A stretch of 39,689 nucleotides of DNA from an uncultured Candidatus Saccharibacteria bacterium (GTDB lineage Bacteria; Patescibacteriota; Minisyncoccia; Portnoybacterales; UBA2143). Shown one piece after another: positions 4,150 through 39,689 of the stretch (position 1 is its first letter; every line of letters begins with the position of its first letter). The stretch covers positions 1-39,689 of the forward strand of contig CAZBRM010000006.1 in assembly GCA_964494655.1 (NCBI GenBank), written 5' to 3'. A model generated the notes under the pieces. The model was not told where the DNA came from, searched no databases, and saw only the letters and a program-made list of their open reading frames with translations. Both the position numbers and the translations under genes were made by a program.

Positions 4150-5484
4150 ATGAAAAAAGAAGTAGATTATAAACAGCGTTTTAAGAATAAAAAAATTACA
4201 GTTATGGGGCTTGGGCTTTTAGGTCGCGGGATTGGCGTGGTAAAATTTTTAGCAGAATGCGGAGCTGATTTGTTAGTAACTGATTTAAAGAATAAGAAAG
4301 AGTTAGAATTTTCCTTAAATAAGTTAAAAAAAATTAAAAATATTAAATATGTTTTAGGCAAACATAAACTAGCTGATTTTAAAAAATGTGATATTATTAT
4401 TAAGGCAGCAGGAGTTCCATTTGACTCTCCATACATTAAAGAGGCGCGAAAGAATCATATTCCAATAGAAATGGACGCATCGCTTTTTTCAAAATTATCT
4501 TCAGCAACAATAATTGGAGTTACAGGAACTCGCGGAAAATCAACAGTTACAAATATAATTTATAATTCATTAAAAAAACATTCATTAAAAAACAAGAATG
4601 TTTTTTTAGGTGGGAATATTAGAGGAATCGCTACTTTACCTTTGCTTAAAAAAGCAAAAAAGGGTGATGGTGTTGTTTTAGAGCTTGATTCATGGCAGCT
4701 GCAAGGTTTCGGCGATTCAAAAATAAGTCCTCAGATTGCTGTTTTTACTAATTTTATGTGTGACCATATGAATTATTATAAAGGAGATATGCAGCGTTAT
4801 TTTTATGATAAAGCAAATATTTTTAAATATCAGAATAGAGATGATTATTTAGTTGTCGGCGAACAAGCAGGGCAGGAAATTAAAAAAAGATTTAAAAATA
4901 AAATTAAAAGTAAAATTATTCAAATAAAAAATTATATTCCTAAAAATTGGAAAATCAATTTAATTGGAGAACATAATAAAATAAATATTGCTTTGGCAGT
5001 AGAAGCTCTGAAGATTTTAGGATTAAGTAGTTCTGTAATTAAAAAAGGAGTGGAAGATTATAATGGAGAGCTGGGCCGACTTGAGTTAGTCAGAAAATTT
5101 AAAGGTGTCGCTTATTATAATGATACAAATGCGACAACGCCCGACGCCCTTATGGCTGCGCTAAAAGCTCTGGGTAAGAAAAATATTATTTTAATAGCAG
5201 GCGGGGATGATAAGGATTTGAATTATAAAGAAATAACAGAATTTATTATTAAGACAGTAAAAATATTAATTTTGATTGAAGGGACAGCTACTAATAAAAT
5301 TATTTCATATTTACCAAAGTCGGTAGATGTTGTTAATAGTATGAAAAAGGCATTTAGAAAAGCAAAGAAATTTTCTCAAAAAGGCGATATTATCCTTTTA
5401 TCTCCAGGCGCAGCCAGTTTCGGAGTTTTTAAAAATGAATATGATAGAGGAGAGCAATTTACAAAACTGGTCAGGAGTTTATGA
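4150..5484 (+). CDS. murD: UDP-N-acetylmuramoyl-L-alanine--D-glutamate ligase
   Basis: GLGLLGRG, GVTGTRGKSTVT, ELDSWQL, DHMNYY, YNDTNAT, LLSPGAASF...NEYDRG. Confidence 0.96.
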   Translation: MKKEVDYKQRFKNKKITVMGLGLLGRGIGVVKFLAECGADLLVTDLKNKKELEFSLNKLKKIKNIKYVLGKHKLADFKKCDIIIKAAGVPFDSPYIKEARKNHIPIEMDASLFSKLSSATIIGVTGTRGKSTVTNIIYNSLKKHSLKNKNVFLGGNIRGIATLPLLKKAKKGDGVVLELDSWQLQGFGDSKISPQIAVFTNFMCDHMNYYKGDMQRYFYDKANIFKYQNRDDYLVVGEQAGQEIKKRFKNKIKSKIIQIKNYIPKNWKINLIGEHNKINIALAVEALKILGLSSSVIKKGVEDYNGELGRLELVRKFKGVAYYNDTNATTPDALMAALKALGKKNIILIAGGDDKDLNYKEITEFIIKTVKILILIEGTATNKIISYLPKSVDVVNSMKKAFRKAKKFSQKGDIILLSPGAASFGVFKNEYDRGEQFTKLVRSL

Positions 5485-6785
5485 ATCAAAATATATTTGA
5501 AGAAATAAAAAAAATTCATTTTATTGGCATTGGCGGTATTGGGGTTTCAGCTTTGGCGCAGATGATGCTTTTAAATAAGAAAAAAGTGATTGGTTCGGAT
5601 ATATTAGTCGGGCCTGCTTTGGAACAAATTAAAAAATCAGGCGCTAAGGTTTTTATTGGCCATAAAAAATCAAATCTTGCTAGAAACACAGATATAATTA
5701 TTTATTCTCCCGCTATTAAGCAGGATAATCCAGAATTAATTCAGGCGAAAAAACTAAATATTCCTGTTTATTCATATCCTGAAGCACTTGGATTAATTTC
5801 AAAAAATAAATACACTATTGCAGTTTCTGGAACTCATGGCAAAACTACAACTACAGCTATGTTGGCTGAAGTAATGATTTCAACTAAAAAAAGTCCAACA
5901 ATTATAATTGGCGGTTTCTTAAAAGAACAAAAAAGAAATTTTATTTCAGGTAAGAGTAAATATTTTATAGTTGAGGCCTGTGAATATAAAAAATCATTTC
6001 TTAATCTTTTTCCAGATATTTTAATTATTACTAATATTGACAATGATCATCTGGATTATTTTAAGAATATTAAGAATATTCAAAATGCTTTTGCTAAATT
6101 AATTAGTAAAGTTCCTCAAAACGGTTTTATTATTTGCAATTTTAAAGAGCAAAATACAAAACAGGCCTTAAAATTGGCTAAAATAAAAGCGAAAGTAATT
6201 GATTATATTAAAGAGAAAAGACTTAAGTTAGAAATTCCAGGTAAACATAATATTGAAAACGCGCAAGCAGTTTTAGCGGTTGCTAAATTAGTTAATGTTA
6301 AAAAAGAACAAGTTGAGAAATATTTAAAAAAATATCTTGGCGTTTGGCGAAGATTTGAATACAAAGGCAGAACAAAAAAAAGGGCTTTAATTTATGATGA
6401 CTACGCTCATCATCCAGCAGAGGTTAAAGCAACACTCAAAGCAATTAAAAATAAGTTTTCTGATAAAAAAATTATTGTTGTTTTTCAACCACACTTGTAT
6501 TCTAGAACAAAGTTTTTATTAAATGATTTTGCCAAAAGTTTTAATTACGCAGATCAAGTAATTATTACAGATATTTACGCAGCAAGAGAGAAAAAGGATA
6601 AAAGCATTCACGCTAAAGATCTGGTTAAGGCAATAAGAACGAAGGCCGTTGACTCTGTTCAATATATATCAGACTTTAAAGAAATTATTAAATATCTTAA
6701 AAAGAACATTAATAAAGATGATGTAATTATGACCATGGGCGCAGGAGATGTTTATAAAATCGGGGAAAAGTTAATTGTTAAGTAG
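5481..6785 (+). CDS. murC: UDP-N-acetylmuramate--L-alanine ligase
   Basis: IHFIGIGGIGVS, GTHGKTTTT, DHLDYF, DDYAHHP, FQPHLYSRT, MGAGD; ATGA overlap with murD. Confidence 0.97.
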   Translation: MNQNIFEEIKKIHFIGIGGIGVSALAQMMLLNKKKVIGSDILVGPALEQIKKSGAKVFIGHKKSNLARNTDIIIYSPAIKQDNPELIQAKKLNIPVYSYPEALGLISKNKYTIAVSGTHGKTTTTAMLAEVMISTKKSPTIIIGGFLKEQKRNFISGKSKYFIVEACEYKKSFLNLFPDILIITNIDNDHLDYFKNIKNIQNAFAKLISKVPQNGFIICNFKEQNTKQALKLAKIKAKVIDYIKEKRLKLEIPGKHNIENAQAVLAVAKLVNVKKEQVEKYLKKYLGVWRRFEYKGRTKKRALIYDDYAHHPAEVKATLKAIKNKFSDKKIIVVFQPHLYSRTKFLLNDFAKSFNYADQVIITDIYAAREKKDKSIHAKDLVKAIRTKAVDSVQYISDFKEIIKYLKKNINKDDVIMTMGAGDVYKIGEKLIVK

Positions 6786-6798
6786 TGCAATAATAAAT

Positions 6799-6827
6799 AA
6801 AAAACACTAGACTTCAGTGTTTTTTTT
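6799..6827 (+). terminator. Intrinsic terminator after murC
   Basis: AAAAAACACT / AGTGTTTTTT stem followed by a T tract. Confidence 0.65.
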
Positions 6828-6859
6828 GTGCTCTATTCTGAAAATAGTTCGAACACATT

Positions 6860-6878
6860 TCGCCGCCGCAGGCGGCGA
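6860..6878. repeat. Short GC-rich palindrome of the CCGCC-N3-GGCGG family
   Basis: TCGCCGCC-GCA-GGCGGCGA, perfect 8-bp stem. Confidence 0.7.
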
Positions 6879-7030
6879 CGGCAAGCCCCCCAAAATTTGA
6901 GCGGCTTCGCCGAGAACTTTGACAATTTCAAGTTTTTCTATGAGTTAATCATAACTCATTACAGTAAATTTTTCAAGAAAAATGAGCTTGAAAAATTTAC
7001 TGCTCTGGCGACAAATTCTTTTTAGAAAAT

Positions 7031-7060: not shown

Positions 7061-7078
7061 CCCGTAATGTTTTCTTTA

Positions 7079-7732
7079 CTAGTTAATTTTTTTCGGCCGA
7101 CTTGGCCTAAAACCGTTTTTCCAGATATAGATTGCAATAGACGGCCGGAACTTCTGGGGAGGCGAATTATTTAAGCGAAAACGCTCCGGGTCTTCGCCTT
7201 TGAAAAGCTCGGATCCGAAAAGAACAACAAACTCACGATGCTTAAAGTTATTAGGGTTGAATCGGGCGAAAGAATCTCCTTCAATATTATCCCTCATGTA
7301 TCCGGTTAAGCAAGCTACTTCTCGCTCAAACTGTTGTTCAAACTCTTCTTGAATGATTCTCTCCGTTCGTTTTTTCTCTTCCGGCGTCAGAGGATAGAAA
7401 GCGGTATTTGCAATATATCTGTCAACTTCTTCCTGATTGAGACCGGGTACAAAAAATTCGTAAAGTCGCCAACGATGTCTAAGGATAGGTAAGTTCCAGG
7501 TAGCACCGTCGTGGTAAAGAATAGGTATGGTTGTTGTTGACCCTGATAATTTGTTGTCGAAAGTAGTGAGGTCGGGGTAGTGCCCGCGGCCATAGAAGTA
7601 TCGTGTGCAAACCCAACCGTATTCAATAGTATCTCTTGGGTCAAAGCGAAAAGGTTGTTTTACTCGAGACCAGATTTCCTGTGAGATGCTTTGCGGCTCG
7701 CTATGAGATTTTGAGACAATTACTTCGTTCAT
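7079..7732 (-). CDS. Hypothetical protein (217 aa) in a GC-richer islet next to tRNA-Leu(GAG)
   Basis: Open ORF with strong SD (AAGGAGGTG) and its own terminator; no family recognised. Confidence 0.75.
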   Translation of the reverse strand: MNEVIVSKSHSEPQSISQEIWSRVKQPFRFDPRDTIEYGWVCTRYFYGRGHYPDLTTFDNKLSGSTTTIPILYHDGATWNLPILRHRWRLYEFFVPGLNQEEVDRYIANTAFYPLTPEEKKRTERIIQEEFEQQFEREVACLTGYMRDNIEGDSFARFNPNNFKHREFVVLFGSELFKGEDPERFRLNNSPPQKFRPSIAIYIWKNGFRPSRPKKIN

Positions 7733-7845
7733 TTGATTTCACCTCCTTATTTCTTTTTTTGTGTTAAGGTACAAAAGCTGCATCAATTCAGTCAAAAACT
7801 ACCATTTCCGAAACTTTAAAGTAGTATAGTAAATAACAACACCAA

Positions 7846-7864
7846 CCCCGCACTTGGTGCGGGG
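7846..7864. repeat. Short GC-rich palindrome
   Basis: CCCCGCAC-TTG-GTGCGGGG. Confidence 0.7.
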
Positions 7865-7898
7865 GAGGCGAACCAACGAAATTTGACTTTTCCTTACT

Positions 7899-7985
7899 TG
7901 GTGCCCAGGGCGGGATTTGAACCCGCACAGCCTTACGACCACAAGCCCCTCAAGCTTGCGCGTCTACCAATTCCGCCACCTGGGC
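7899..7985 (-). tRNA. tRNA-Leu(GAG)
   Basis: GCCCAGG acceptor, CAAGC-TTGAGGG-GCTTG, long variable arm, encoded CCA. Confidence 0.96.
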
Positions 7986-7999
7986 TTATTTCTTTTCAG

Positions 8000-8368
8000 T
8001 TAGTGTTTCTTTATTGTTTGGCTGTTTTTAATTTCTTTAAGTCGGGATTTTTTAGCTGATTTATGGCGAATATAGTAAAGCTTAGCGCGTCTGACTTTAT
8101 GCCTTTTAACTACTTCTATTTTTTCAATAAATGGCGCGTGAATAGGAAAAATTCTTTCTACTCCAATTCCCTTGCTCATTTTTCTAACTGTGATAGTCGC
8201 ATTAATATTTTTGCCATGTTTTTTAGCAATAACAAGCCCTTCAAAGATTTGAATTCTTTGCTTATCTCCTTCTTTAATTTTTTGATGGACACAAACAGTA
8301 TTTCCTGATTTAATATCAGGCAAATCTTTCTTTAATTGTTTTTTATTAAATTCGTCTAACTGATTCAT
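8000..8368 (-). CDS. rplS: 50S ribosomal protein L19
   Basis: [21 protein letters not shown]...[18 protein letters not shown]. Confidence 0.97.
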
Positions 8369-9062
8369 TGTTTTGAATTTCTTTTAATGTATCTTTTAAA
8401 TCTTTTGGAAGCTCTGATTTGAATTCCATTATCTTACCATCAGGCATTTTAAATTTCAAGTATTCAGCGTGCAAAAACTGTCTGGTCAGTTTTTTAGGGC
8501 AAATCTGTCTTTTAAACTTATATTGCTTATCTCCAACAACTGGATGCCCAATTGATTTTAAATGAATTCTGATTTGATGTGTTCGGCCTGTTTTCGGATA
8601 AACTTCTAATAAAGTATAATTTCCGTCCTTGATGGAAAAATTTTTTATAACTCTATATTCTGTCCAGGCTTTTTTTGATTTATCATCTAATAAGACGCTT
8701 CTTTTTCTGTGGTCTTTTTTTGATAAGCTAATTGATTTTGTGATTGTTCCTTTTTTATCTTTAACTTTTCCGTGAACTAGAGCTAAATATTTTTTAACGA
8801 CTTTTCTATCTTTAAATAAATTTTTTAAATATTCAAAAAATTTATTATTTTTAGCTACAACTATTAAACCAGATGTATCTTTATCTAATCGATGAACAAT
8901 ACCAGGTCGGAGTGGGTCTTCGCCAACATTTTTTATCTCTGGATAATAGGCGAGTAATTCATTAACTAAAGTATTTTTTTGGTCTTGATTAATTGGATGA
9001 ACTATCAAATTAGTCGGTTTGTCTATTACAATAATATCTTTATCTTCATATATAATTTTCAT
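8346..9062 (-). CDS. RluA/RluD-family pseudouridine synthase without an S4 domain
   Basis: [48 protein letters not shown]; start at 9062 because the longer ORF runs through tRNA-Ala. Confidence 0.93.
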
Positions 9063-17687: not shown

Positions 17688-18095
17688 ATGAAAGTTTTAA
17701 AAATATTTTTTATTATTTATTTAATTGTTATCGTGTTTATTGGATCTAATTTTGTTGATGCCGGTATTCATACTGGACCGATAGTTCCTTGTAAGGATGA
17801 TTGTACTCTCTGTCATCTTTGGCATTTAGCGAGTAATATAATTAATTTTATTAGTTTTAATTTAGCTATTCCAATTGCAACTCTTTTATTTATAACAGCA
17901 GGCATTATTTTTCTAACGTCAGGCGGAAGTGAACAAAAAGTTGGTTTAGCAAGAAGTATTTTTATTAATACGGTTATCGGCTTGTTAATTATCTTTTGTA
18001 GCTGGCTTTTAATTGATACTTTATTGAAAACAATTGCTACTGGCGAAATTAGTGGCGCTTGGAATCAATTTCCTACCTGTCCACCCATAAAATGA
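17688..18095 (+). CDS. TrbC/VirB2-type pilin with Cys-containing variable region
   Basis: Signal peptide, IVPC...CTLC, TM-G...TSGG..K...AR....N.VIG-TM architecture. Confidence 0.78.
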   Translation: MKVLKIFFIIYLIVIVFIGSNFVDAGIHTGPIVPCKDDCTLCHLWHLASNIINFISFNLAIPIATLLFITAGIIFLTSGGSEQKVGLARSIFINTVIGLLIIFCSWLLIDTLLKTIATGEISGAWNQFPTCPPIK

Positions 18096-18481
18096 TAAAA
18101 AATATGATTAAGAATATATTTAAAAAAAGTTATTTATTGATTATTTCAATTTTATTATTTGGGTTTTCAGTGGTTGCTATTTATGCAAAAGATGGAGATT
18201 CTCCGCCACCAAAAACAGGTGGTTCAATAACAAATCCGCTTAACGCGACTAGTTTTACAGAGTTGATTGGAGGCATTATTGATTGGGTTGTCGCTATTGG
18301 CATATTGATTGCTGTTATTATGATTATTTATTCTGGGATATTATTCATGACTTCTGGGGGGAAAGAAGAGAGCGTTACTAAAGCAAGAAAAGCGTTAACA
18401 TGGTCTATAATTGGTCTAGCTGTTTTGTTAATAGGCAGAGGATGGATTGGGATAGTTAAGAGTCTTATTGGAGGGGAATAA
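18092..18481 (+). CDS. TrbC/VirB2-type pilin
   Basis: ITNPL, MIIYSG...MTSGG.EE.V.KARKAL.WSIIGL; ATGA overlap with the upstream pilin (alternative start 18104). Confidence 0.8.
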   Translation: MIKNMIKNIFKKSYLLIISILLFGFSVVAIYAKDGDSPPPKTGGSITNPLNATSFTELIGGIIDWVVAIGILIAVIMIIYSGILFMTSGGKEESVTKARKALTWSIIGLAVLLIGRGWIGIVKSLIGGE

Positions 18482-20941: not shown

Positions 20942-22630
20942 CTATTCCTCCTTCTCTTCTATAGGATATAAGTCAGGGGATTTGTAATTAGAATAAAATT
21001 CTTGTTTATCAATAAGTTCTCCTTTTTGATAAACTTCTTGAGTAAGGATGGTTTTCATTGAGCCGTCTTCTCCTTTTTCTAAAATATAAGGTCCTTTAAC
21101 CTTTACTGTTCTGCCATCGTTGGTGCCGTAAAAATTGAAAAATAATTGGTGGCCACTTGCAAATGACTGAATCAGAATATGATTTGGGGTGTTGTTAATA
21201 AAGCGTAGGTCAGTCCATGGACTATAAACAGTAGCGTCAAATCCTTGCGGATTATAATATCCTACTGGGAAAGCATGCGGTCTTCTTTGAGTTATTTCTA
21301 ATCCTGCATTAATTGCCGCTCTGAATATAGTTGTTGAAACTTGGCATAATCCGCCTCCGTATTCTAAAACTGTTTCATCTTTTTTTATTACCATTTCCTG
21401 CAGATATCCCTGTTCTGGGCCTGTTTCGCTTATAAAACTATTAAAAGAAAATTCTTCATTCGGATTTATAATTATTCCATTAAGCGTTGCCGTTCCTGTC
21501 TTGATATTGTGAATTCTATTTTTTGAAGAACCGTAAAAGTTTGAAGTCCCTTGGCTGATTAGGACGTTAATTCCTAGGCTATTTGTTTGCCCTAATGTTA
21601 TTTCTGGCAATGATTTGTCAGCTATAATGTTTATTTTTTTATTTGGTTCGCTAGCAAGGATATTATTATTTATTTGTTTAATTGTTTTTTCTGTTTTTAT
21701 TTCAAATCCAGGCTGATCTGGTATAAAAACAATAGCCGTGCTGCTTGATATTTCTAATTGCGCGTTAGTTGCCGGTTTATTTATATCGTAAGAAATTTTT
21801 GATAGATATTTTTTAATTTTATCTTCATTTAAGAAAACACCAAGAATCTGATTGTCAGAATCAATTTCTTTTTCCGGCTTAAACTCAAGCCAATCAATCA
21901 AAGTTTCCTTGTTGATTATCCATGTTCTATCTTCAAGAATTAACTGATATGGCTGTTTTGATAATATTTTTTGAGCTTTTTCATTTGCCAAATTAGTTTC
22001 ATTATTTATTACTGATGGCTCGTCAATGATTAATTCTAAATTAATTGACTCTATAGAAAAATTTGAGGCATTTTTTGATAATTTATTTAATAATTTCCCC
22101 CTATTGATTGTTGTTCCTTTTAGTGAGTGTTGAATAGAAAAATTGTCAACTTCTTCGTTAAAAATTAAAGAAGCATTTTGAGCAGGTTTTTCAATATTTT
22201 TAAATAATTCAGTTATTTTTTCTTCAAATTTCTCGTTATTTATTTCATAAATAGGATCAGTATTTCGTAAGCCCAATAAAGCGGATAGTTGTTCTTTAAT
22301 GTTTGTTATAATATTTACTTGATGCGTAATTTGGTAAGTTTTATTAATTGTTTCTTGCAATTTTAATTTGAATCCTAAATCAGATAATTTAACAGGCCAA
22401 TTATATTCTTGATATAAGAGTATTATCTCTTGTTCACCAAAATCATCACATTGTTTTTTTAATATTTCTTTTGATCTTACAATATTATATCCGCCTAAAT
22501 TAGCATTTGCTATTTTAGTTCCAAAAGCTATTTTTTCACTATTAACAATTTGAAGAATCAGTATTAAATATATTAGTCCTATAAAAGTAACGAGAAGGCC
22601 TGTTATTATTTTACGATAAATTTTCTTCAT
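20942..22630 (-). CDS. VanW-family protein with peptidoglycan-binding-like repeats
   Basis: N-terminal TM; NRIHNI, EEFSFN, YGGGLCQVSTT.FRAA, G.DATVY....DLRF.NNT. Confidence 0.9.
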   Translation of the reverse strand: MKKIYRKIITGLLVTFIGLIYLILILQIVNSEKIAFGTKIANANLGGYNIVRSKEILKKQCDDFGEQEIILLYQEYNWPVKLSDLGFKLKLQETINKTYQITHQVNIITNIKEQLSALLGLRNTDPIYEINNEKFEEKITELFKNIEKPAQNASLIFNEEVDNFSIQHSLKGTTINRGKLLNKLSKNASNFSIESINLELIIDEPSVINNETNLANEKAQKILSKQPYQLILEDRTWIINKETLIDWLEFKPEKEIDSDNQILGVFLNEDKIKKYLSKISYDINKPATNAQLEISSSTAIVFIPDQPGFEIKTEKTIKQINNNILASEPNKKINIIADKSLPEITLGQTNSLGINVLISQGTSNFYGSSKNRIHNIKTGTATLNGIIINPNEEFSFNSFISETGPEQGYLQEMVIKKDETVLEYGGGLCQVSTTIFRAAINAGLEITQRRPHAFPVGYYNPQGFDATVYSPWTDLRFINNTPNHILIQSFASGHQLFFNFYGTNDGRTVKVKGPYILEKGEDGSMKTILTQEVYQKGELIDKQEFYSNYKSPDLYPIEEKEE

Positions 22631-31332: not shown

Positions 31333-31338
31333 TAATTT

Positions 31339-32892
31339 ATGCTTCTTAAGCAAAAATATTATTTGAAAATAGGGAAGGCAAGTGATTTGAAAAGCCCGAG
31401 AGAAAGAATAATCTATCGGGCTTTTGAGATTCTTCCAGGCGCTTTGGCCTGGTTCACCATTTTAGGGGTGATTTTTTTATCTTGGCTTAATCCTGCTTTT
31501 GTAGCGATTTTTATTATTACTTTTGATGTCTATTGGGTTTTAAAAACTATTTATCTGTCTTTCCATTTGAGAATAAGTTATAAACAGATGCAGGAGAATA
31601 TAAAAACAGATTGGTTTTCTAAAGTTAAATCTTTAAAAAAGAAAAATTGGCAGGATTATTACCATTTAATAATTCTGCCTGTTTACAAAGAACCATATCA
31701 AGTGATAGAAGAAACTATTCAAGCGATATTTAATACAGAATACCCCAATGACAAAATGATAATTATTTTAGCTACTGAAGAAAGAGCTGGAGGATCTGCT
31801 CAAGATATGGCTGAAAAAATAAGACAGAAATATTCTAATAATTTTTATAAATTTTTAATTACCATTCATCCAAAAGATATTGTTGGCGAATTAGCTGGCA
31901 AAGGAGCTAATTCAACCTGGGCAGCTCGCCAGGCAAAAAAGAAATTAATTGATAAGCTGAAAATTCCTTATGAAAATATTATTGTTTCCTGTTTTGATAT
32001 TGATACTCAAGTTTATCCTAAATATTTTTCTTGCTTAACATATCATTATTTAACTGTTAAGAATCCAACCAGAACAAGTTATCAACCTATTCCTGTTTAT
32101 AACAACAATATCTGGCAAGCGCCTTGTATCTCTAGAGTAGTTGCAACCTCAGGAACTTTTTGGCAAATGATTCAACAGCAAAGACCAGAGCGTCTTTCCA
32201 CTTTTTCTTCCCAATCAATAAGTTTCAAAGCTTTGAATGAAGTTGATTTTTGGCCGGTTAATATGGTTTCCGAGGATTCACGGATATTTTGGCAGAATTT
32301 ACTTTATTATGATGGGAATTACAAAGTTATTCCTTTAAATTATCCTGTTTCTATGGATGCCAATTTGTCAGATAATTTCTTTAAAACATCTCTTAATGTT
32401 TATGTCCAACAGAGACGCTGGGGTTGGGGAGTAGAAAATATTCCTTTTTTATTCTTTGGTTTTTATAAAAATAAAAAAATTAATTTAAGTAAAAAAATCC
32501 ATTGGATATGGATTCAACTTGAAGGTTTTTGGTCTTGGGCAACTAATGCTTTGTTAATTTTTCTTCTTGGTTGGCTGCCCCTATATCTAGGAGGAGATAA
32601 ATTCAATATTACTCTTTTGTCATATAATTTACCCAGAGTTACTAGAATATTAATGACTATAGCTATGATTGGATTAATTGGTTCAGCTATTTATAGTACT
32701 TTGCTTTTACCGAAGCGGCCAGATAGGTATATAGGGATTAAGGGATTTTTTAAGAGTTTTGGTATGATTATTCAATGGATTTTGGTTCCTTTTACTATTC
32801 TTGTTTTCGGAGCCATTCCTGGATTAGAGTCGCAAACTCGTTTAATGCTTGGGAAATACATGGGATTTTGGGTAACTCCTAAGAAAAAGTGA
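31339..32892 (+). CDS. Membrane glycosyltransferase family 2 (processive, cellulose-synthase-like)
   Basis: PVYKE, GKGAN, DID, SED and QQRRW (QxxRW), flanked by TM helices. Confidence 0.9.
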   Translation: MLLKQKYYLKIGKASDLKSPRERIIYRAFEILPGALAWFTILGVIFLSWLNPAFVAIFIITFDVYWVLKTIYLSFHLRISYKQMQENIKTDWFSKVKSLKKKNWQDYYHLIILPVYKEPYQVIEETIQAIFNTEYPNDKMIIILATEERAGGSAQDMAEKIRQKYSNNFYKFLITIHPKDIVGELAGKGANSTWAARQAKKKLIDKLKIPYENIIVSCFDIDTQVYPKYFSCLTYHYLTVKNPTRTSYQPIPVYNNNIWQAPCISRVVATSGTFWQMIQQQRPERLSTFSSQSISFKALNEVDFWPVNMVSEDSRIFWQNLLYYDGNYKVIPLNYPVSMDANLSDNFFKTSLNVYVQQRRWGWGVENIPFLFFGFYKNKKINLSKKIHWIWIQLEGFWSWATNALLIFLLGWLPLYLGGDKFNITLLSYNLPRVTRILMTIAMIGLIGSAIYSTLLLPKRPDRYIGIKGFFKSFGMIIQWILVPFTILVFGAIPGLESQTRLMLGKYMGFWVTPKKK

Positions 32893-32931
32893 AAGCCCAG
32901 GAAGAATTTATTTCTCTTCTTGGGCTTTTTT
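32892..32931. terminator. Bidirectional terminator
   Basis: AAAGCCCAGGAAGA / TCTTCTTGGGCTTT(TTT). Confidence 0.75.
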
Positions 32932-32938
32932 GAATCTA

Positions 32939-33277
32939 TTATATTTTTTCTTGGCAAGAACGACATCTTCTTGCCTCTGGGATGGACACAAGGCGTTGCG
33001 AAGGTATGTCTTTCCCACAACACTCGCATATCCCATATTTGTTATCCTCCAACTTTTGCAGTGCTTCTTCAATACTTTCCATGCGCTTGGCTAAACTAAT
33101 TAGGTGGCACGGTTTTTTTGATCGGTTTGATAAAGTATGGTTTTCCACAAAAGTTCTGGAACTACCTGAAGCTAATTCTTCCATAATTTTTTCTTGCGTT
33201 CGAATCATTTTGTTCGAGGTCTCACATGCCTTTTTAATTAATTTTCTTCGGATCTCTTTTTGCGCTTTCTTGTCCAT
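32939..33277 (-). CDS. TraR/DksA-family C4 zinc-finger protein
   Basis: IEEALQKL....YGICECCG..I...RL..IPEA..C..C; SD GGAGG. Confidence 0.85.
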   Translation of the reverse strand: MDKKAQKEIRRKLIKKACETSNKMIRTQEKIMEELASGSSRTFVENHTLSNRSKKPCHLISLAKRMESIEEALQKLEDNKYGICECCGKDIPSQRLVSIPEARRCRSCQEKI

Positions 33278-33319
33278 TCTTCTTTCCTCCGTAGTTAAAA
33301 GTTAGGTTCAATTCTTAAC

Positions 33320-33348
33320 ACTATAACATTTAATGTTTTATTTGTCAA
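33320..33348 (-). promoter_or_regulatory. Sigma70 promoter of the DksA-like gene
   Basis: TTGACA-N17-TATAGT with extended -10 TG. Confidence 0.7.
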
Positions 33349-33353
33349 CTCTT

Positions 33354-35420
33354 TTATTCCAAATGAATATTTTCATTAAATTTTTTTAATCTTAATTTAA
33401 TCTCTGATGTAAGCAAATTATTTTCTAAAACTATTCTGGCTGCTTGACGGGTTTTCTTTATTAATTCTAAATCGTTTAATGAGGCCATTGCTAAATCAGG
33501 CAGTCCCCATTGTCTGGTTCCTATAAAATCGCCGGCTCCTCTAATTTTCAAATCTTTTTCAGCTAATTCAAAACCATCTTTAGCTGTTAGCATTGCCTTT
33601 AATCTTTGATGAGTTTTCTTAGTGCTGGAATTGGTAAATAAAAAGCAAGATGATTGAATATTTCCTCTGCCGATTCGTCCTCTAAATTGGTGTAGTTGCG
33701 CTAATCCAAATCTATCAGATCCTTCAATAATCATAACTGCGGCGTTAGGTATATCAACGCCTACTTCGACAACTGAAGTTGAAATCAAAATATCGGTTTT
33801 TCCTTTTTTAAATTGATTCATAATTTTTTCTTTTTCATTAGGTTTTAATTTGCCATGAAGCATGGCCAGCTTAAATTTAGGAAAAATCTTTTTTGATAGT
33901 TTTTCGTATTCTTGCGTTACGGATTTAATTTCTGCTTGTCCGCTTCTGGAGGATAACTTGTCTGATTCTTCAATTAAAGGACAGATAACAAAAACTTGTC
34001 TTTTTTGCTTTATTTGTTCCCTAATAAAATTATATGTTTTATCGCGATTTTTTGGAGAAACAATTTCAGTTATAATCTTCTGTCTGCCTTGAGGCATTTC
34101 TTTAATTAAGGAAATATCTAGATCGCCGTAAATAGTTAAAGCTAAAGTGCGTGGGATAGGAGTAGCTGTCATTGAAAGTAAATGTGGAATAGTTTTTAAG
34201 CCATCGTCTATTTGACAGATTTTTTTCTGTAGAGCGGCTCTTTGAGCTACGCCAAATCTATGTTGTTCGTCAATAATAGCCAAGGCAAGATTTTTAAAAG
34301 ATAAATCTTTTTGAATAATGGCGTGAGTTCCAATAATAATATCCATTTTACCTTCAGCTATTTTTTTCTTTAATTTTGCGTCTTTATTATTTCTTGTTAA
34401 CAGACATATTTTTATATTTGATTTTTTAAGCGTGTCTTTAAATGTTTGAAAATGCTGTTTAGCTAGAATTTCAGTTGGGGCCATTATCGCTGTTTGGTAT
34501 TTCTGTTTAGCAACTGCTAAGGCTGCCATAATTGCAACGATAGTTTTACCCGAACCAACATCTCCATTGAGCAGACGATTCATAGGATTGTTTTTAGCTA
34601 TATCTTGAAATATTTCCCAGGCAGCTATTTTTTGATCGTCAGTTAATTCAAACGGCAGATTTTTAACAAAAGGCTTGATTAAATTTTTATCAAATAACAA
34701 TTTAACAGATTTTTCTTTATTTAATTTTTGTCTTTGTTGAAGGGAAATTAATTGGATTAAAAAAAGTTCGTTAAAAGCTAAACGCTGGCGGGCTTTTTTG
34801 ACCAAGGAAAGGTTTCCAGGAAAATGAATTTGCTCAATTGCTTGAGTTAAATCCATTAAATTAAACTTATTTTTTATCTGAACAGGCAGGAAATCACTAA
34901 TTTGCTTTGTTAAACATAGCAATGGTTTTATTAAAAATCTTAAATAACGAGAACTTATTCCTTCCGTTTCGCGATAAACAGGGACTAATCGTCCAGTGTG
35001 AGTAGTCTCTTTTTTTGTTAATTCATAAACAGGATTAGAAAAACATAGTGTTTTTTTATAAAAACTCAATTTCCCGGAAAGATTAACAATTTTTCCTTTT
35101 TTTAAAGTTTCAATTAAATATGGTTGATTGAACCAAACAGCTTTAATGCTTCCGCTTTTATCTTTAATTAAAGCATCGGTCAAAACCATTCTTCTATGAA
35201 AAAAGCGTGTATTTTTAATATCAACAATTTCTCCTTGAATAGTCGCTTTTTCACTTTCTTTTAATTTGTTAATTAAGGTTTTTTTTCTGAAATCTTCATA
35301 ACGATTGGGGAAATGAAAAAATAGGTCCTGTATTGTTTTGATATTAAGCTTGTTGAGCTTTTTCAAATAAGCAGGGCCTACTTTATTAATTTGTTCAATT
35401 TTAGTGTTAAGAGTTAACAT
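33354..35420 (-). CDS. recG: ATP-dependent DNA helicase RecG
   Basis: GDVGSGKT, DEQHRFGV, MTATPIPRTL, RFGLAQLHQFRGRIGR, DL.IRG.G; start at 35420 because the longer ORF overlaps tRNA-Arg. Confidence 0.97.
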   Translation of the reverse strand: MLTLNTKIEQINKVGPAYLKKLNKLNIKTIQDLFFHFPNRYEDFRKKTLINKLKESEKATIQGEIVDIKNTRFFHRRMVLTDALIKDKSGSIKAVWFNQPYLIETLKKGKIVNLSGKLSFYKKTLCFSNPVYELTKKETTHTGRLVPVYRETEGISSRYLRFLIKPLLCLTKQISDFLPVQIKNKFNLMDLTQAIEQIHFPGNLSLVKKARQRLAFNELFLIQLISLQQRQKLNKEKSVKLLFDKNLIKPFVKNLPFELTDDQKIAAWEIFQDIAKNNPMNRLLNGDVGSGKTIVAIMAALAVAKQKYQTAIMAPTEILAKQHFQTFKDTLKKSNIKICLLTRNNKDAKLKKKIAEGKMDIIIGTHAIIQKDLSFKNLALAIIDEQHRFGVAQRAALQKKICQIDDGLKTIPHLLSMTATPIPRTLALTIYGDLDISLIKEMPQGRQKIITEIVSPKNRDKTYNFIREQIKQKRQVFVICPLIEESDKLSSRSGQAEIKSVTQEYEKLSKKIFPKFKLAMLHGKLKPNEKEKIMNQFKKGKTDILISTSVVEVGVDIPNAAVMIIEGSDRFGLAQLHQFRGRIGRGNIQSSCFLFTNSSTKKTHQRLKAMLTAKDGFELAEKDLKIRGAGDFIGTRQWGLPDLAMASLNDLELIKKTRQAARIVLENNLLTSEIKLRLKKFNENIHLE

Positions 35421-35423
35421 TAG

Positions 35424-35497
35424 CGTCCTCGGCAGGACTTGAACCTGCGACCTTTTCTTCCGCAAAGAAACGCTCTGTCCAACTGAGCTACGAGGAC
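35424..35497 (-). tRNA. tRNA-Arg(GCG)
   Basis: GTCCTCG acceptor, TTTCT-TTGCGGA-AGAAA anticodon arm, GCAGG-TTCAAGT-CCTGC, G73. Confidence 0.94.
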
Positions 35498-35499
35498 AT

Positions 35500-36042
35500 T
35501 TAAAACTTTAAATTTCTTGCCAGATTATCAATTGCGGATTCCTTGTGTTTTCTTTCGGGTAAATATTTAATTAAAATTCTTCTAATTTCAACCGGATTTT
35601 CATTTCCGAGAGGCACTTTAATATATGGCATAACTGTTTTTTTACTTCTTAAACTTAATTCTTTTATTTGAGGAGGATCATAGAAAATCCAGAACGACCT
35701 TAAATTTTCAAATTCATAAAGTACACTATTTATTTTAACGCCTTTAGGACTAATTGATAATTTTACATTACTTGGTTTTTTTGATGAATAAGTAATTATC
35801 AAAAAACAGCTTATTCCGATAAGTAATCCAAATAAAAGATTTTTCGTAAAGATAGCTATGAGAAATAATATTCCAGCAATTATACCTGTGACAATAAACC
35901 AATTCTTGCTTTTTTTATAATACTCAAATTCAGGAGTTGTCCACTCCAAATGTGTTTTTATATCACCCTTAATAGGTTCAGGCTTTTTAACTTGTTTTTC
36001 TTGCTTTCTATTTTTTTCTTTTAAATTAACAATATTAGACAT
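35500..36042 (-). CDS. Conserved-looking two-TM membrane protein with C-terminal PH-like domain (DUF5673-like)
   Basis: W..PEF..Y.KS..W, TM hairpin, G.....Y.F..L.SFWI.Y. Confidence 0.7.
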   Translation of the reverse strand: MSNIVNLKEKNRKQEKQVKKPEPIKGDIKTHLEWTTPEFEYYKKSKNWFIVTGIIAGILFLIAIFTKNLLFGLLIGISCFLIITYSSKKPSNVKLSISPKGVKINSVLYEFENLRSFWIFYDPPQIKELSLRSKKTVMPYIKVPLGNENPVEIRRILIKYLPERKHKESAIDNLARNLKF

Positions 36043-36183: not shown

Positions 36184-36630
36184 ATGAGTACTTTAAAAAA
36201 GAAAAAATTATATCTTAACCCTGACGAGATGGCTTTTCGAGCTATTTATTGTGATTTATTAATGGAAGGGAAAATCAATGTGATCTTCAGGCCAGGAAAA
36301 AGAATTTGTGGAGATTTCCGTGGTTATTGTTCTGGTCAAGAAGTTAAAGCAAAAATAATTAAAGAAATCGGATTAGATAGAGAAAGCGTTCCTCCTGAAT
36401 TCTATAATAAATTTACTAAAACAATAATTATTGAAAAAGTGCAAGAAAAGAAAATAGGAGATTTAGAAGAAAAAGATTTTAAAGGTTCAAGTCCAGATTT
36501 AACAAATAAGGAATCATTAAAATACAATTTAGGCATTATTTATAATCTTCTTCCTTCTCAATTAACAGATGATTCTCTTGTGACTATAATTAAATTTAGC
36601 TATAAGGAGGTGAAACAAAATGGCCATTAA
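36184..36630 (+). CDS. ASCH/PUA-like domain protein (alternative start 36160)
   Basis: M.F...Y..L...GK.....R.G, IEKV....I.DL...DF and L...L..IY......D..VT.I.F.Y pattern. Confidence 0.55.
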   Translation: MSTLKKKKLYLNPDEMAFRAIYCDLLMEGKINVIFRPGKRICGDFRGYCSGQEVKAKIIKEIGLDRESVPPEFYNKFTKTIIIEKVQEKKIGDLEEKDFKGSSPDLTNKESLKYNLGIIYNLLPSQLTDDSLVTIIKFSYKEVKQNGH

Positions 36631-37636
36631 AGGGTTAATTGAAAATAAAATACTATATTTTGCTCAAAAACCGGAAAATAATCCAAATAGTTTGAATTTT
36701 CCATTTTATACGTTGAGTTTTATTGAAGATGATTATCCGGCTAGAACTCCTGTGATGTGGAATGCAGTTTATCAAAAATTTAATTTTCCCGTGGCCAATA
36801 TTATGTTAATTAGTAATGCTAGCAATGTTCGTAAGATTTTAAGTGAATTAGCTGGAGACAAAAAATATTTAGGCGGTGGAATGGGCGTTGGCTTTAAAGA
36901 TGAAGCAGTTAAATTTTTAAAAGATTTAGATTCTTTGGCTGAGATTATAGGTTCAATAAATCTTATTCAAAAAACCGAAAATGGGATTCTGAAAGGACAT
37001 AATACTGACGGTGAAGGATATGCTTTAAGTTTGGAAAAAATTTTTAAACAAAGAAAAGAAAGTTTAGTTGGAAAAAAGGTATTAATGTTGGGAGCTGGTG
37101 GTACTGGTAATGCTATTGCTTTTTCTTTAGCTAGGAGAGACATGAAAATTATTATTCTTAATAGAACAATCAACAAAGCAGAGATTTTGTCTAAGAAAAT
37201 TAATCAGTATTTCAAAAACAATCAATCTTTTTTTGGTGGAGAGGATGAAATTACTGATTATATTAAACAAGGAGTAGATGTAATTGTGAATGTATCCATT
37301 AAAGGAGCAACTGGTCCATTAGAAAAATATTCTGCTCTTGCTCAATCTCAGCTACCAACAACAGAAGAAAATATTAATGTTAATATTGAAGCTTCAAAGA
37401 AAATATTAGCAGATATCTCTAAAGACGTTATTATTAGTGATATAGTTTTGCGTTCTGAACTATCTCCTCTCCTTAAATTAGCTCAGAAAGCTGGTTTAAA
37501 TATTTTAACAGGGATTCCGATGGTAATTAATCAGGCTGTTAAAGCTTTTGAGATAATTCATAGTAAAGAATTAAGAGCAAAAAAAATCAAAATTGATGAT
37601 ATAGCAATGGCAATGAAAGAAGCTGTTAAGTTATAA
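36620..37636 (+). CDS. Shikimate-dehydrogenase-family oxidoreductase with a divergent substrate site
   Basis: GHNTDGEG, LGAGG, NRT..KA, G..M...QA...F; SD AAGGAGGTG. Confidence 0.85.
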   Translation: MAIKGLIENKILYFAQKPENNPNSLNFPFYTLSFIEDDYPARTPVMWNAVYQKFNFPVANIMLISNASNVRKILSELAGDKKYLGGGMGVGFKDEAVKFLKDLDSLAEIIGSINLIQKTENGILKGHNTDGEGYALSLEKIFKQRKESLVGKKVLMLGAGGTGNAIAFSLARRDMKIIILNRTINKAEILSKKINQYFKNNQSFFGGEDEITDYIKQGVDVIVNVSIKGATGPLEKYSALAQSQLPTTEENINVNIEASKKILADISKDVIISDIVLRSELSPLLKLAQKAGLNILTGIPMVINQAVKAFEIIHSKELRAKKIKIDDIAMAMKEAVKL

Positions 37637-37655
37637 AATCAAACAAAGTCCAACG

Positions 37656-37695
37656 AAATTCAATATTGTGTTAATCATAATATTGAATTTTTTTT
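37656..37695 (+). terminator. Terminator after the SDH-like gene
   Basis: AAATTCAATATTGTG / CATAATATTGAATTT followed by a T tract. Confidence 0.65.
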
Positions 37696-37714
37696 GAGTA
37701 TTAATTAATTAAAA

Positions 37715-37752
37715 TGGCGGTGGCGATGTCCGGAAGTTTGAACCGGTATTCG
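37715..37752 (-). other. Putative att site (degenerate tRNA 3' end)
   Basis: Minus strand CCGG-TTCAAACT-TCCGG...CACCGCCA: T-loop-like hairpin and CCA end, located at the base-composition switch. Confidence 0.45.
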
Positions 37753-37888
37753 CCTTAAAGGCCTTATCTTATGGCCGTATTGATAAAATTATACGCCGTT
37801 TAAGGTTATTTTACAAGGAAAATCCAGCCTCCTTTGAGGTTCCGGCTTTTGCTCAAAAAGTCTACTAATTCAAAACTGCTTAATTTAG

Positions 37889-38107
37889 CTAAAAAGCGTC
37901 ACCCTTCATATCCACTTCCTCAATCAGCTTCCTTTCCTTAAGGTATCGGCTGACAGCATACCAAGCCGAGTTTATGATCGGTATTAGTAGTGTCCATCGA
38001 GGATCATTCTCTACATAGGCCAAAATGATCGGTAGAATTGCCGATACTCCGGAATAAAGAAAAACGATCGCTAGGTGCTTTAAAGCTTCTTTTTGTGGTG
38101 TTGTCAT
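37889..38107 (-). CDS. Putative holin
   Basis: 72 aa, two hydrophobic helices, charged C-terminal tail, directly after the endolysin. Confidence 0.68.
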   Translation of the reverse strand: MTTPQKEALKHLAIVFLYSGVSAILPIILAYVENDPRWTLLIPIINSAWYAVSRYLKERKLIEEVDMKGDAF

Positions 38108-38113
38108 AGTGGT

Positions 38114-38683
38114 TTAATAAATTATCTTTTTAATGATTGTCAGTCCTTCCTCAATTTTCCTCACACCCTCCTCGACTGAAGTGTTTGGTGTGTGGCCTCC
38201 AGCAAGGGCAACGAGTTCATCCAATATTCTTTTATCGGTTGCTGGGCAATTCGGCTTTTTGGAATAAATTTCAAAGTGGCCGACAATATGATCACGGTCG
38301 ACCGGAATTTGCCAGCGTTGGCAGATCTCGTGGATCATCATTGCACTCGCTTGTTTCATTGCTTCAGTCCAGATGTCACCCGGCTTTCCATCGTGTTCGA
38401 TCCCGATCGTATAGAGGTTAGGATTAATCTTTGGTTTTATAAACTTCCAAATCGGGGCATCTACACGGCCAGCGTGCCAAGCAGTATCTTCCTCTTTGAC
38501 ATATTGATGCACTTCGCCGTTTTTCCCGATGCCGTAGTGAGCACTTACTTGCGATGCTGGGTTTGTAAACCACGCATCAGTTCCGGCCAGCGTGCCGTCC
38601 ATAATATGAATGACTATCGCTTCCGGTCGATAGCCATTGCGACCAGCCCAGAAGTTGGGAGACTTTTTTTGAATGATGTTCAT
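38114..38683 (-). CDS. N-acetylmuramoyl-L-alanine amidase (Amidase_2), phage endolysin
   Basis: SPNF, IVIH, SAHY.I, AWHAG, IGIEH, IVGH.EI...K..CP (His/His/Cys zinc ligands). Confidence 0.92.
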   Translation of the reverse strand: MNIIQKKSPNFWAGRNGYRPEAIVIHIMDGTLAGTDAWFTNPASQVSAHYGIGKNGEVHQYVKEEDTAWHAGRVDAPIWKFIKPKINPNLYTIGIEHDGKPGDIWTEAMKQASAMMIHEICQRWQIPVDRDHIVGHFEIYSKKPNCPATDKRILDELVALAGGHTPNTSVEEGVRKIEEGLTIIKKIIY

Positions 38684-38687
38684 AGTT

Positions 38688-38915
38688 TTATTTGTTAATG
38701 GTGATTAATAAATTAATCAGAGCCGTGATCAACCCTCCAACTGATGCTGTTGCTAATATCCAAAAGAAACGCTTGAGCCAATCAACATCAGTTCCGACTT
38801 TTGTCAGATCGGTTTTTATATGAACGAGATGATTGTCTTTGATTTCGTTCACCGTCTTTTCTACACGGTCGAGACGCTCATCTTGTATTTTGTTTTGGTA
38901 TGCTGTTCTTTCCAT
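38688..38915 (-). CDS. XhlA-like coiled-coil plus C-terminal TM protein (lysis cassette)
   Basis: 75 aa from ATG 38915: coiled coil, then WLKRFFW and a hydrophobic helix; upstream of the endolysin. Confidence 0.65.
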   Translation of the reverse strand: MERTAYQNKIQDERLDRVEKTVNEIKDNHLVHIKTDLTKVGTDVDWLKRFFWILATASVGGLITALINLLITINK

Positions 38916-38919
38916 AGGA

Positions 38920-39689
38920 TTATTTCGGCACATATACCGAGTCGAATCTGTTGATGAGACCTCTGCCTTCCAATTTTTCCTCGATTCGGTCTTGGATATC
39001 CCGATCACGCCAGAACTTTTCTTTTTCCATGTCGACTGATTTTGCTTTTGCACCGACGAGTCCATACAAGAATTTCACGACTCCTGATGTGTTGTCATCG
39101 GAGAGTTTTCCGGCCGTGGTGTAAAATCTCCCCAACGCAGTGTTTAAGAAGTGGAGTTTATAAGCATTCGCTCGATAGCTGACATTTCCACTTTTATCTT
39201 TATGTTCGTTAACCTCTAACCAGTCACGCAGTCCGGGAATCGCATTCACGAATGGATAGACACGGCTTCCTTCTTTGATCGGCTCACCAGTGAATAGATT
39301 CTGTCCTGTGGCCGCCTCAATCGGGTACTTTAGAATTGGTGATAGTTCACCGACCATGCTCGCCAAGGTTCGCTGTGGACTTCCTTTGTAGAGGCGGTTT
39401 ATATCCTCGACTGGCAGACCGAGACCGTATAGATATTGTGAGAATCCGTTTTTCTCACCAAGTCGGACCGGCAATCCCTCTCTCATGTATGGAGGTAGAT
39501 ATTGGAATTCCTCTTTGGCTTTTTCTTTATCGACTTGAAGGTTGTCTACAAGCTTGCCGATTGAGGCGTACTTACCGGGTTGCTTTACTATTTGCTCGAG
39601 CTGAAGTGGGATGTTGCCACGAGTCCATCGGTAAAACGGCAACAGTCGCTTCATAATGTTTTGCTCGAAAGGTGCGAGTGCTTCCGGTG
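38920..39689 (-). CDS. C-terminal part of a large phage protein (virion/ejection-type), truncated by the window edge
   Basis: Frame is open to the window end (PEALAPFEQNIMKRLLPFYRWTRGNIP); LSP..K.PIE..TG.NLFTG.PI motif of the kind seen in large polyvalent phage proteins. Confidence 0.62.
   Translation of the reverse strand, partial: PEALAPFEQNIMKRLLPFYRWTRGNIPLQLEQIVKQPGKYASIGKLVDNLQVDKEKAKEEFQYLPPYMREGLPVRLGEKNGFSQYLYGLGLPVEDINRLYKGSPQRTLASMVGELSPILKYPIEAATGQNLFTGEPIKEGSRVYPFVNAIPGLRDWLEVNEHKDKSGNVSYRANAYKLHFLNTALGRFYTTAGKLSDDNTSGVVKFLYGLVGAKAKSVDMEKEKFWRDRDIQDRIEEKLEGRGLINRFDSVYVPK

Follow-up and report, generated by a model that had tools for sequence, protein, structure and literature searches.

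The window analysed here is the whole of contig C6, a stretch of 39,689 nucleotides from genome G000, which is an assembly of 490 kb in 21 contigs with a guanine-plus-cytosine (GC) content of about 0.31 that belongs to an uncultured bacterium of the Candidate Phyla Radiation (CPR) type. Its final segment, positions 37715-39689, very probably represents the right (attR) end of a temperate tailed phage whose head module is SU10-like and which is integrated in the tRNA-Ser(TGA) gene of this bacterium, at its 3' end. An original prediction, made from the letters of the window, had proposed an integrated prophage in a CPR-like genome, and this proposal is sustained by two attachment (att) junctions, an unoccupied site in a relative, an attP form and the existence of complete relatives. 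The predicted start coordinate is the exact first base of the phage-derived DNA, which begins at 37715 and continues off the end of contig C6. Across the final 2 kb the GC content climbs from about 0.30 to 0.43-0.45, reaching 0.44 overall in 37715-39689 as compared to 0.31 in the host, and the contig means across the genome range from 0.28 to 0.34. Four minus-strand open reading frames (ORFs), separated by gaps of 4, 4 and 6 nt, lie in this segment, in keeping with the co-oriented, tightly packed and GC-richer run of four genes that had been described. The features at this end of the window are the following.

36620-37636: shikimate-dehydrogenase-like gene (338 aa), the last host gene before the junction
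37637-37714, no strand: host DNA up to the junction (B' flank), AT-rich and intergenic, following the shikimate-dehydrogenase-like gene and containing an inverted repeat with a T-run behind it
37715-37720, no strand: attR core TGGCGG, whose complement CCGCCA forms the last bases of tRNA-Ser
37715-37744, minus strand: phage half-site (P arm), a 30-nt motif, GGTTCAAACTTCCGGACATCGCCACCGCCA
37716-37868, plus strand: detached C-terminal integrase tail, 50 codons and a stop, an open frame that starts inside the core
37889-38107, minus strand: holin-like protein of 72 aa with two hydrophobic segments and a charged C-terminus, starting 6 nt after the amidase stop
38114-38683, minus strand: N-acetylmuramoyl-L-alanine amidase (endolysin) of 189 aa, with Amidase_2 as its single domain
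38688-38915, minus strand: membrane protein of 75 aa, with a hydrophilic N-terminal part of about 48 aa and one C-terminal transmembrane helix
38920-39689 (ORF 38920-39687), minus strand: last 255 codons of a virion-associated protein of about 940-1060 aa, cut by the contig end

Attachment sites and unoccupied locus

Two phage contigs from IMG/VR, G001 (21.6 kb) and G002 (55.9 kb, rated complete), were used as relatives of the phage-derived segment. The match to G001 (93-98% nucleotide identity) and to G002 (79%) starts abruptly at window positions 37712-37715, and the B' flank is unlike either of them; at that position, the flank is different in every related prophage. The P-arm motif itself ends eight of nine related prophage loci, beyond which lie unrelated flanks with GC contents of 0.31-0.50. 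The opposite junction, attL, is found at the start of contig C13, where 78 nt homologous to the phage DNA beside the G002 tRNA are followed by an intact tRNA-Ser(TGA) at 79-168, with positions 2-79 encoding the last 26 integrase codons. The hexamer TGGCGG is present on both contigs (window 37715-37720 and C13 79-84) as a 6-bp direct repeat that flanks the prophage, and the P arm occurs once in the genome, as does its mirror image, the P' arm, at the C13 start. The outer 11 nt of both arms, compared by eye, are exact mirror images and co-vary in all seven elements compared. Inverted half-sites around a shared core of only 6 bp correspond to the attachment site architecture of large serine integrases, and the CCGCAA and CCGCCA variants seen in G044 suggest that crossover takes place within CCGC. 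Position 37715 is hence a true prophage/host junction (attR) and not a chimera. A tRNA gene at the 37.7-kb junction was also considered and rejected, for ARAGORN finds none and the P arm, inspected by eye, cannot be folded as the 3' half of a tRNA, which leaves it as an integrase half-site. As a separate observation, C13 1-78 and its homologues contain a further copy of the P' arm, inverted (GGTTCGATCTTGGAGAC) and placed around a short hairpin some 45-60 nt in from the left end.

The unoccupied site was identified in G004, a genome of the same genus in which homologues of window positions 31338-35950 (84-87% nucleotide identity) and of the C13 tRNA-Ser(TGA) (91%) lie on one contig, 2.4 kb apart, in the same orientation and with no phage. 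Since these flanks are contiguous without the phage, C6 and C13 are therefore neighbours with the prophage between them. Synteny was also sought through the 338-aa shikimate-dehydrogenase-like gene and failed, the gene being present in one of 40 relatives, and it was the tRNA/ACP side that worked; in G003, the 3 kb after tRNA-Ser(TGA) are unlike G000 and proved uninformative. Contig C12 of G004 (L024) also harbors two partial copies of the tRNA-Ser 3' end (TGGCGGAGAGGGTGGGATT), at 7063-7082 and 7743-7763, downstream of tRNA-Ser(TGA) at 7820-7907. Between these copies lie two small ORFs (87 and 113 aa) and a GC-rich stub, an arrangement that resembles the remains of previous integrations at this hotspot.

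The joined form of the attachment site was searched for by scanning metagenome contigs for the predicted attP joint, which yielded 35 pattern matches, many of them GC-rich chance matches or other element types. A single one (L093, 2254 nt) has a G002-type integrase upstream: integrase residues 373-506 (80.6% identity) run in frame through the core and the sequence is then colinear with window positions 37715-39528 (74.7%), with the 45 nt upstream matching C13 40-84. L093 is the excised, joined attP form. A repeat search on L093 missed the P/P' pair, the exact seeds there being shorter than 6 nt, and searches of IMG/VR by integrase protein and by integrase alignment returned G002 alone, with no match to the 20-nt attP pattern.

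Integrase gene and attP

The plus-strand frame at 37716-37868 is open over 47-51 codons in all 11 elements, with conservative substitutions, in-frame indels and a common ending ...FDVPAFA(V/Q)KVY, and the other two frames of the region stop early in ten of the 11. On C13 the last 26 codons of the integrase are read in a frame that continues into the core, and L093 shows both parts fused; the gene therefore extends across attP and loses its tail on integration. The alternative assignment of 37716-37868 as a mere spacer is ruled out by the frame conservation and by the fusion in L093. Integrases with the Resolvase, Recombinase and zinc-ribbon arrangement are present in G001, G002 and all five related genomes in which they were sought, G000 holding the 26-codon end and the 50-codon tail only. 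In G001 the enzyme is a convergent large serine recombinase just past the break (Resolvase, Recombinase and Zn_ribbon_recom; phrog_95, 5.6e-73), and the G002 serine integrase matches the same family (phrog_95, 2.3e-97).

These arrangements point to a mechanism in which the large serine integrase would recombine attP, in which two mirror half-sites, GGTTCAAACTT...ATC, flank a CCGC(C/A)A core, with the tRNA end. Crossover within CCGC, with the terminal bases supplied by the phage, would leave the tRNA intact. Because the integrase gene spans attP, integration would sever its last 50 codons, which would be left beside the lysis genes (37716-37868), and the gene body at the other end, on C13, would read on into the antisense strand of the tRNA.

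The phages phiC31, Bxb1, A118, TP901-1 and SPbeta (SprA) provide known large serine recombinase systems of temperate phages. The element described here shares with them the integrase domains, the location of the gene beside attP, the imperfect inverted half-sites, the very short core and the lack of long identity between attP and attB. In contrast to those systems, however, its target is the 3' end of a tRNA-Ser gene of any isoacceptor (six of six elements), and its integrase gene spans attP. In a 2023 mycobacterial survey (PMC10654092), attB overlaps a tRNA or tmRNA gene for 16 of 23 tyrosine-integrase sites and for none of six serine-integrase sites, and the 2015 Islander paper states that tRNA genes are not known as targets of serine-family integrases. 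A literature search that covered articles without their supplements returned no account of a serine integrase aimed at tRNA-Ser in CPR bacteria. An attP inside the integrase gene has been described for the tyrosine enzymes Mx8 IntP and those of the SSV type, whose genes are altered or split at the 3' end upon integration (PMC6070905, PMC7253208, PMC4383910). As in those cases, the prophage form of the protein would differ here from the free form, but the enzyme is a serine recombinase and only a 50-codon tail is exchanged.

Lysis genes and large virion-type protein

The 189-aa amidase matches Pfam Amidase_2 (PF01510) with E 3.1e-27 and 95.9 bits against a cut-off of 26, its residues 17-148 covering profile positions 2-130 of 131, and is matched by 20 PHROG endolysin/amidase families. 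When it is aligned to AmpD and AmpDh2, H26, E96, H136 and C146 fall on corresponding positions; we take H26, H136 and C146 to be the zinc ligands and E96 the catalytic glutamate. Neither a second Pfam domain nor a wall-binding domain was detected, in agreement with the predicted endolysin devoid of an obvious cell-wall-binding domain, and the protein shows no signal peptide and, by eye, no N-terminal hydrophobic segment. Orthologues 78-94% identical are present in nine of the ten genomes searched.

The adjacent 72-aa protein has the features of the holin class: it is small, falls within the range of one to three transmembrane segments, bears a charged C-terminus and is encoded beside the endolysin. 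One of its segments (windows 8-17) exceeds the hydropathy threshold, and a second, less hydrophobic one (approximately 38-56) and the charged tail KERKLIEEVDMKGDAF were read by eye. Orthologues at 67-92% identity occur in all ten related elements. Topology and position thus suggest a holin role, and the anatomy of the cassette points to a holin-endolysin mechanism. There is no gene between the 72-aa ORF and the junction, in line with the earlier statement that no spanin follows the holin. In G001 (L002 11850-12395) an additional 181-aa ORF without family match lies between the holin gene and attP, where the window has 31 nt.

The start of the 75-aa protein was placed at the ATG located 4 nt after the upstream stop, the 125-aa version in the ORF list overlapping the large gene. 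Its 11 orthologues are 80-92% identical and it is kept in all ten related elements. Weak PHROG matches to hemolysin (0.0095) and holin (0.06) families were obtained, and the protein is a probable lysis accessory or second holin. The label "XhlA-like" given in the original prediction does not hold, since Pfam XhlA (PF10779) matches one of the 11 orthologues, with E 0.26, and does not match the window protein, so that the likeness is one of topology alone. The profile of the family returned nothing from the PDB sequences (best E 0.92). Matches to PT-TG (E 0.004-0.009) and Peptidase_C39_2 (0.08) lay below the cut-off and were disregarded. The large-protein fragment, finally, shares 98% identity with G001 (residues 804-1058 of its 1058-aa protein) and 95% with the 938-aa protein of G002. 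It has no significant Pfam or PHROG family, and its nearest Atlas cluster, "large polyvalent protein associated domain" (score 0.88), should be taken only as a lead.

On induction, the 72-aa two-helix protein would open the membrane, possibly aided by the 75-aa protein, and release the cytoplasmic zinc amidase, which would then cut peptide stems off the peptidoglycan of the CPR cell itself; a cell that lacks an outer membrane would not require a spanin. As to the target of the amidase, the original prediction had allowed both for the wall of the CPR bacterium and for that of its own host bacterium. The former would be the simplest target because the phage integrates in the CPR chromosome, and the latter finds no support. 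The xhlA-xhlB-xlyA lysis modules of the PBSX/SPbeta type and the two-holin cassettes of Bacillus phages offer a known counterpart. Like these, the cassette lacks spanins and packs three genes into a tight operon: one for a small membrane protein whose N-terminus is hydrophilic and whose C-terminus forms a helix, one for an Amidase_2 endolysin, and one for a small protein with two helices. It differs from them in the lack of XhlA or holin family membership and in its order, which is membrane protein, amidase and holin.

Related elements and their distribution

The gene content of the element can be read from its relatives. G002 preserves the integrated layout, which on the left runs from a tRNA-Ser(CGA) directly into GATGTCCAAGTTAGAACC (the P' arm), the serine integrase, CI-like and Cro-like regulators, TerL, the portal protein and an SU10-type major capsid protein (MCP), and on the right through tail genes, the large protein, the 75-aa protein, the amidase and the holin to the mirror motif GGTTCTAACTTCGGGACATCGCCACCGCCA (the P arm), followed by unrelated DNA. 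G001 and G002 both carry TerS, TerL (phrog_2, 9e-21), portal, BppU-like and beta-helix tail proteins and a LysM protein, together with the protein of about 1000 aa and the same three small lysis genes. The head genes of the relatives match Pfam SU10_MCP (2.4e-40) and SU10_adaptor (6.9e-16), and SU10_portal (6e-05) falls below the cut-off. The likeness to the enterobacterial podophage SU10 resides in this head module, seen in the relatives and not in the window; unlike SU10, the element is temperate, of about 37 kb and hosted by CPR bacteria, and its remaining genes are unrelated. In all five related genomes, the integrase (80-81% identity) lies 36-38 kb from the amidase and beside a tRNA-Ser gene (anticodons GGA, CGA, GCT, GCT and TGA). 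Every one of the six elements examined is located at a tRNA-Ser gene, and the complete relatives measure about 36-38 kb.

One genome per species was scanned with the alignment of capsid proteins, which yielded 20 loci, 18 of them at identities of at least 90%. By record title, nine belong to Saccharibacteria, Parcubacteria, Nomurabacteria, Paceibacterota, Magasanikiibacteriota or Uhrbacteria (including a 742,714-bp chromosome), three to an unspecified "bacterium" and eight to non-CPR taxa. The non-CPR titles look unreliable: one record titled "Gammaproteobacteria" (L029) coincides in contig number and coordinates with G347, which is placed in the phylum of G000, and LpxC was not found in any of the five genomes tested. 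The host GyrA of the phage-bearing genomes is 54-62% identical to that of G000, and the GC content of the host flanks varies between 0.31 and 0.50 while that of the phage stays at 0.43-0.49. An even sample of 401 genomes of the phylum, in which G000 is counted and has no match, contains the capsid (E <= 1e-50) in three genomes, two at 93-94% identity and outside the class of G000 and one at 35%. Found across classes and yet in three of 401 genomes, the lineage is therefore wide but rare.

Some further observations concern the surroundings of these relatives. Immediately past the right end of the prophage in G002 (L003 11964-20765; L008 99-8979) follow genes for a Cap15-type cyclic-dinucleotide receptor protein, for another large serine recombinase and for a type I restriction-modification system, and they may make up a further element stacked at this tRNA-Ser site. 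In G051, a Nomurabacteria-titled genome (L051), a second and diverged P-arm-like motif occurs on the reverse strand at 3281-3310, some 840 nt beyond the prophage end, which suggests tandem elements. The PD-(D/E)XK nuclease genes of G000 (C9 9287-10027) and G002 (6137-6934) encode proteins 60% identical over 248 aa, a likeness that may reflect genes passing between CPR hosts and phages of this group.

Alternative explanations

Several results weigh against an SU10-like temperate phage integrated in tRNA-Ser(TGA). By tblastn, the proteins of G001 and G002 match only C6 and C13 in G000, besides two unrelated host genes; capsid, terminase and integrase body were not found anywhere in the genome, and the MCP search came back empty. 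The GC content of the phage lies 13 points above that of the host, which is unusual for a phage/host pair. The 72-aa protein belongs to no Pfam or PHROG holin family (E <= 0.1) and the 75-aa protein is likewise without family support. The integrase of G001, the closest relative, is a different one, 24% identical to that of G002, and its frame stops 8 codons past the core, and a TAA directly precedes the core in seven of the 35 attP-pattern loci, indicating that the tail is not always fused to the upstream frame. Lastly, the sole contig that bridges the junction comes from sequencing run X1, possibly the source sample, and is thus not independent; the contig from X6 enters host DNA by 26 nt only, below the 31 nt of a qualifying bridge, and in X4 the host contig ends at 37697 and the phage contig has 98 unlike letters before 37717.

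The want of structural, terminase and integrase body genes in the 490-kb assembly would be accounted for by a gutted prophage, of which only the ends survive, namely the lysis cassette on C6 and the integrase stub on C13, and whose interior has been deleted and is not merely unassembled or unbinned. We regard this as unlikely. Both contigs break inside phage DNA, with no deletion joint, and no damage is seen in the four ORFs, in the integrase tail or in the final 26 codons of the integrase. Moreover, a Logan contig of run X1 extends 874 nt past the end of the window, and in that run the depth of the phage part (6.5) is close to that of the host (7-8.5). This copy of the prophage may be intact. 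The terminase, capsid and integrase genes that the original prediction had expected further along the contig are present in near-identical relatives and not on C6, which ends, an outcome that favours that prediction, though indirectly. The attribute "complete" given in that prediction applies to the lysis cassette alone; the interior of the prophage is missing from the assembly.

Deletion aside, the position of the segment at the end of a contig, the 13-point GC jump and the lack of an independent run with a qualifying bridging contig could be reconciled with an assembly chimera, in which a free phage contig had been misjoined to a CPR contig or mis-binned and the organism was no lysogen. Reads across the junction, by which the original prediction had set the prophage apart from such a chimera, were obtained in part: a 590-nt Logan contig of X1 covers 37472-38061 with no mismatch, and neither X6 nor X4 provides a qualifying bridge. 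The break, however, lies exactly at the att core that bounds eight other prophages, the complementary junction with the host tRNA is found on another contig of the same genome, and the host flanks adjoin in a relative. Because a random join would not give these three features together, the chimera is close to refuted. In X4, a lake-water run, the phage end is joined to a different AT-rich flank (37706), and past the half-site (37745) two contigs diverge from the phage sequence, which fits the same or related phages residing in other hosts or sites of that water body. Much of the phage part was uncovered in run X7, and the uncovered stretches were not interpreted. It is, in turn, highly improbable that the segment belongs to a non-viral serine-integrase island with a lysis cassette, such as a defence or bacteriocin-like module at tRNA-Ser; small islands do exist at the same tRNA in G004, but in every relative examined this block of genes directly adjoins those for tail, head and packaging.

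Relation to known CPR prophages

An integrated tailed phage in an ultra-small genome resembles the CPR/Patescibacteria prophages already published. In these reports, 147 prophages are described in Saccharibacteria, Gracilibacteria and Absconditabacteria (PMC10746230) and ten, of about 43.7 kb, in Paceibacteria (PMC12455944); groundwater CPR phages are stated to be mostly temperate (10.1101/2025.02.25.640227), and further CPR prophages appear in 10.1101/2024.03.08.584096. The att sites, integrase type and lysis cassette of the G002-type phage family were not found in the available text of the CPR-prophage papers, the supplementary tables of which may list members. This kind of object is thus already in print and the finding is confirmatory rather than surprising: CPR prophages are known, and it is the type of insertion enzyme that is unusual here.

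CPR/Patescibacteria phages are known almost only from metagenomic predictions. The link to the host is here a physical one, given by the att junctions, the empty site and the attP form, and it makes the integration system and the lysis cassette directly testable. A serine integrase with an attP of about 50 bp and an attB in the tRNA-Ser gene, present in every bacterium, could become a genetic tool for organisms that have almost none, and the amidase, which is small and has one domain, offers a candidate reagent for attacking CPR walls. The occurrence of near-identical phages across classes bears, in addition, on gene flow among reduced genomes. Tentatively, and with more doubt than conviction, we postulate that a single close-knit phage lineage establishes lysogeny in ultra-small bacteria belonging to separate classes of one phylum by means of a serine integrase aimed at the near-universal tRNA-Ser 3' end, and that the exchange of the integrase tail for tRNA-antisense codons could switch between integrating and resident forms of the enzyme.

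Other features of the window and the genome

The rest of the window consists of housekeeping genes. Among them, the murD, murC and VanW genes that had been reported to share the window were located at 4150-5484 (MurD), 5481-6785 (MurC) and 20942-22630 (a VanW/PG_binding_4 protein). Elsewhere in the genome, contig C19 (L001) encodes at 7571-8806 a 411-aa AIRS_C-domain protein, within a 1.5-kb stretch at the contig end with a GC content of 0.46 (genome 0.31). This GC-rich end was examined as the other end of the prophage and rejected, the AIRS_C-domain gene having no phage similarity, and it is probably a separate acquisition. Back in the window, at 17688-18481, two neighbouring T4SS_pilin-domain genes (E 2.6e-08 and 1.1e-11) adjoin the gene of a solute-binding protein.

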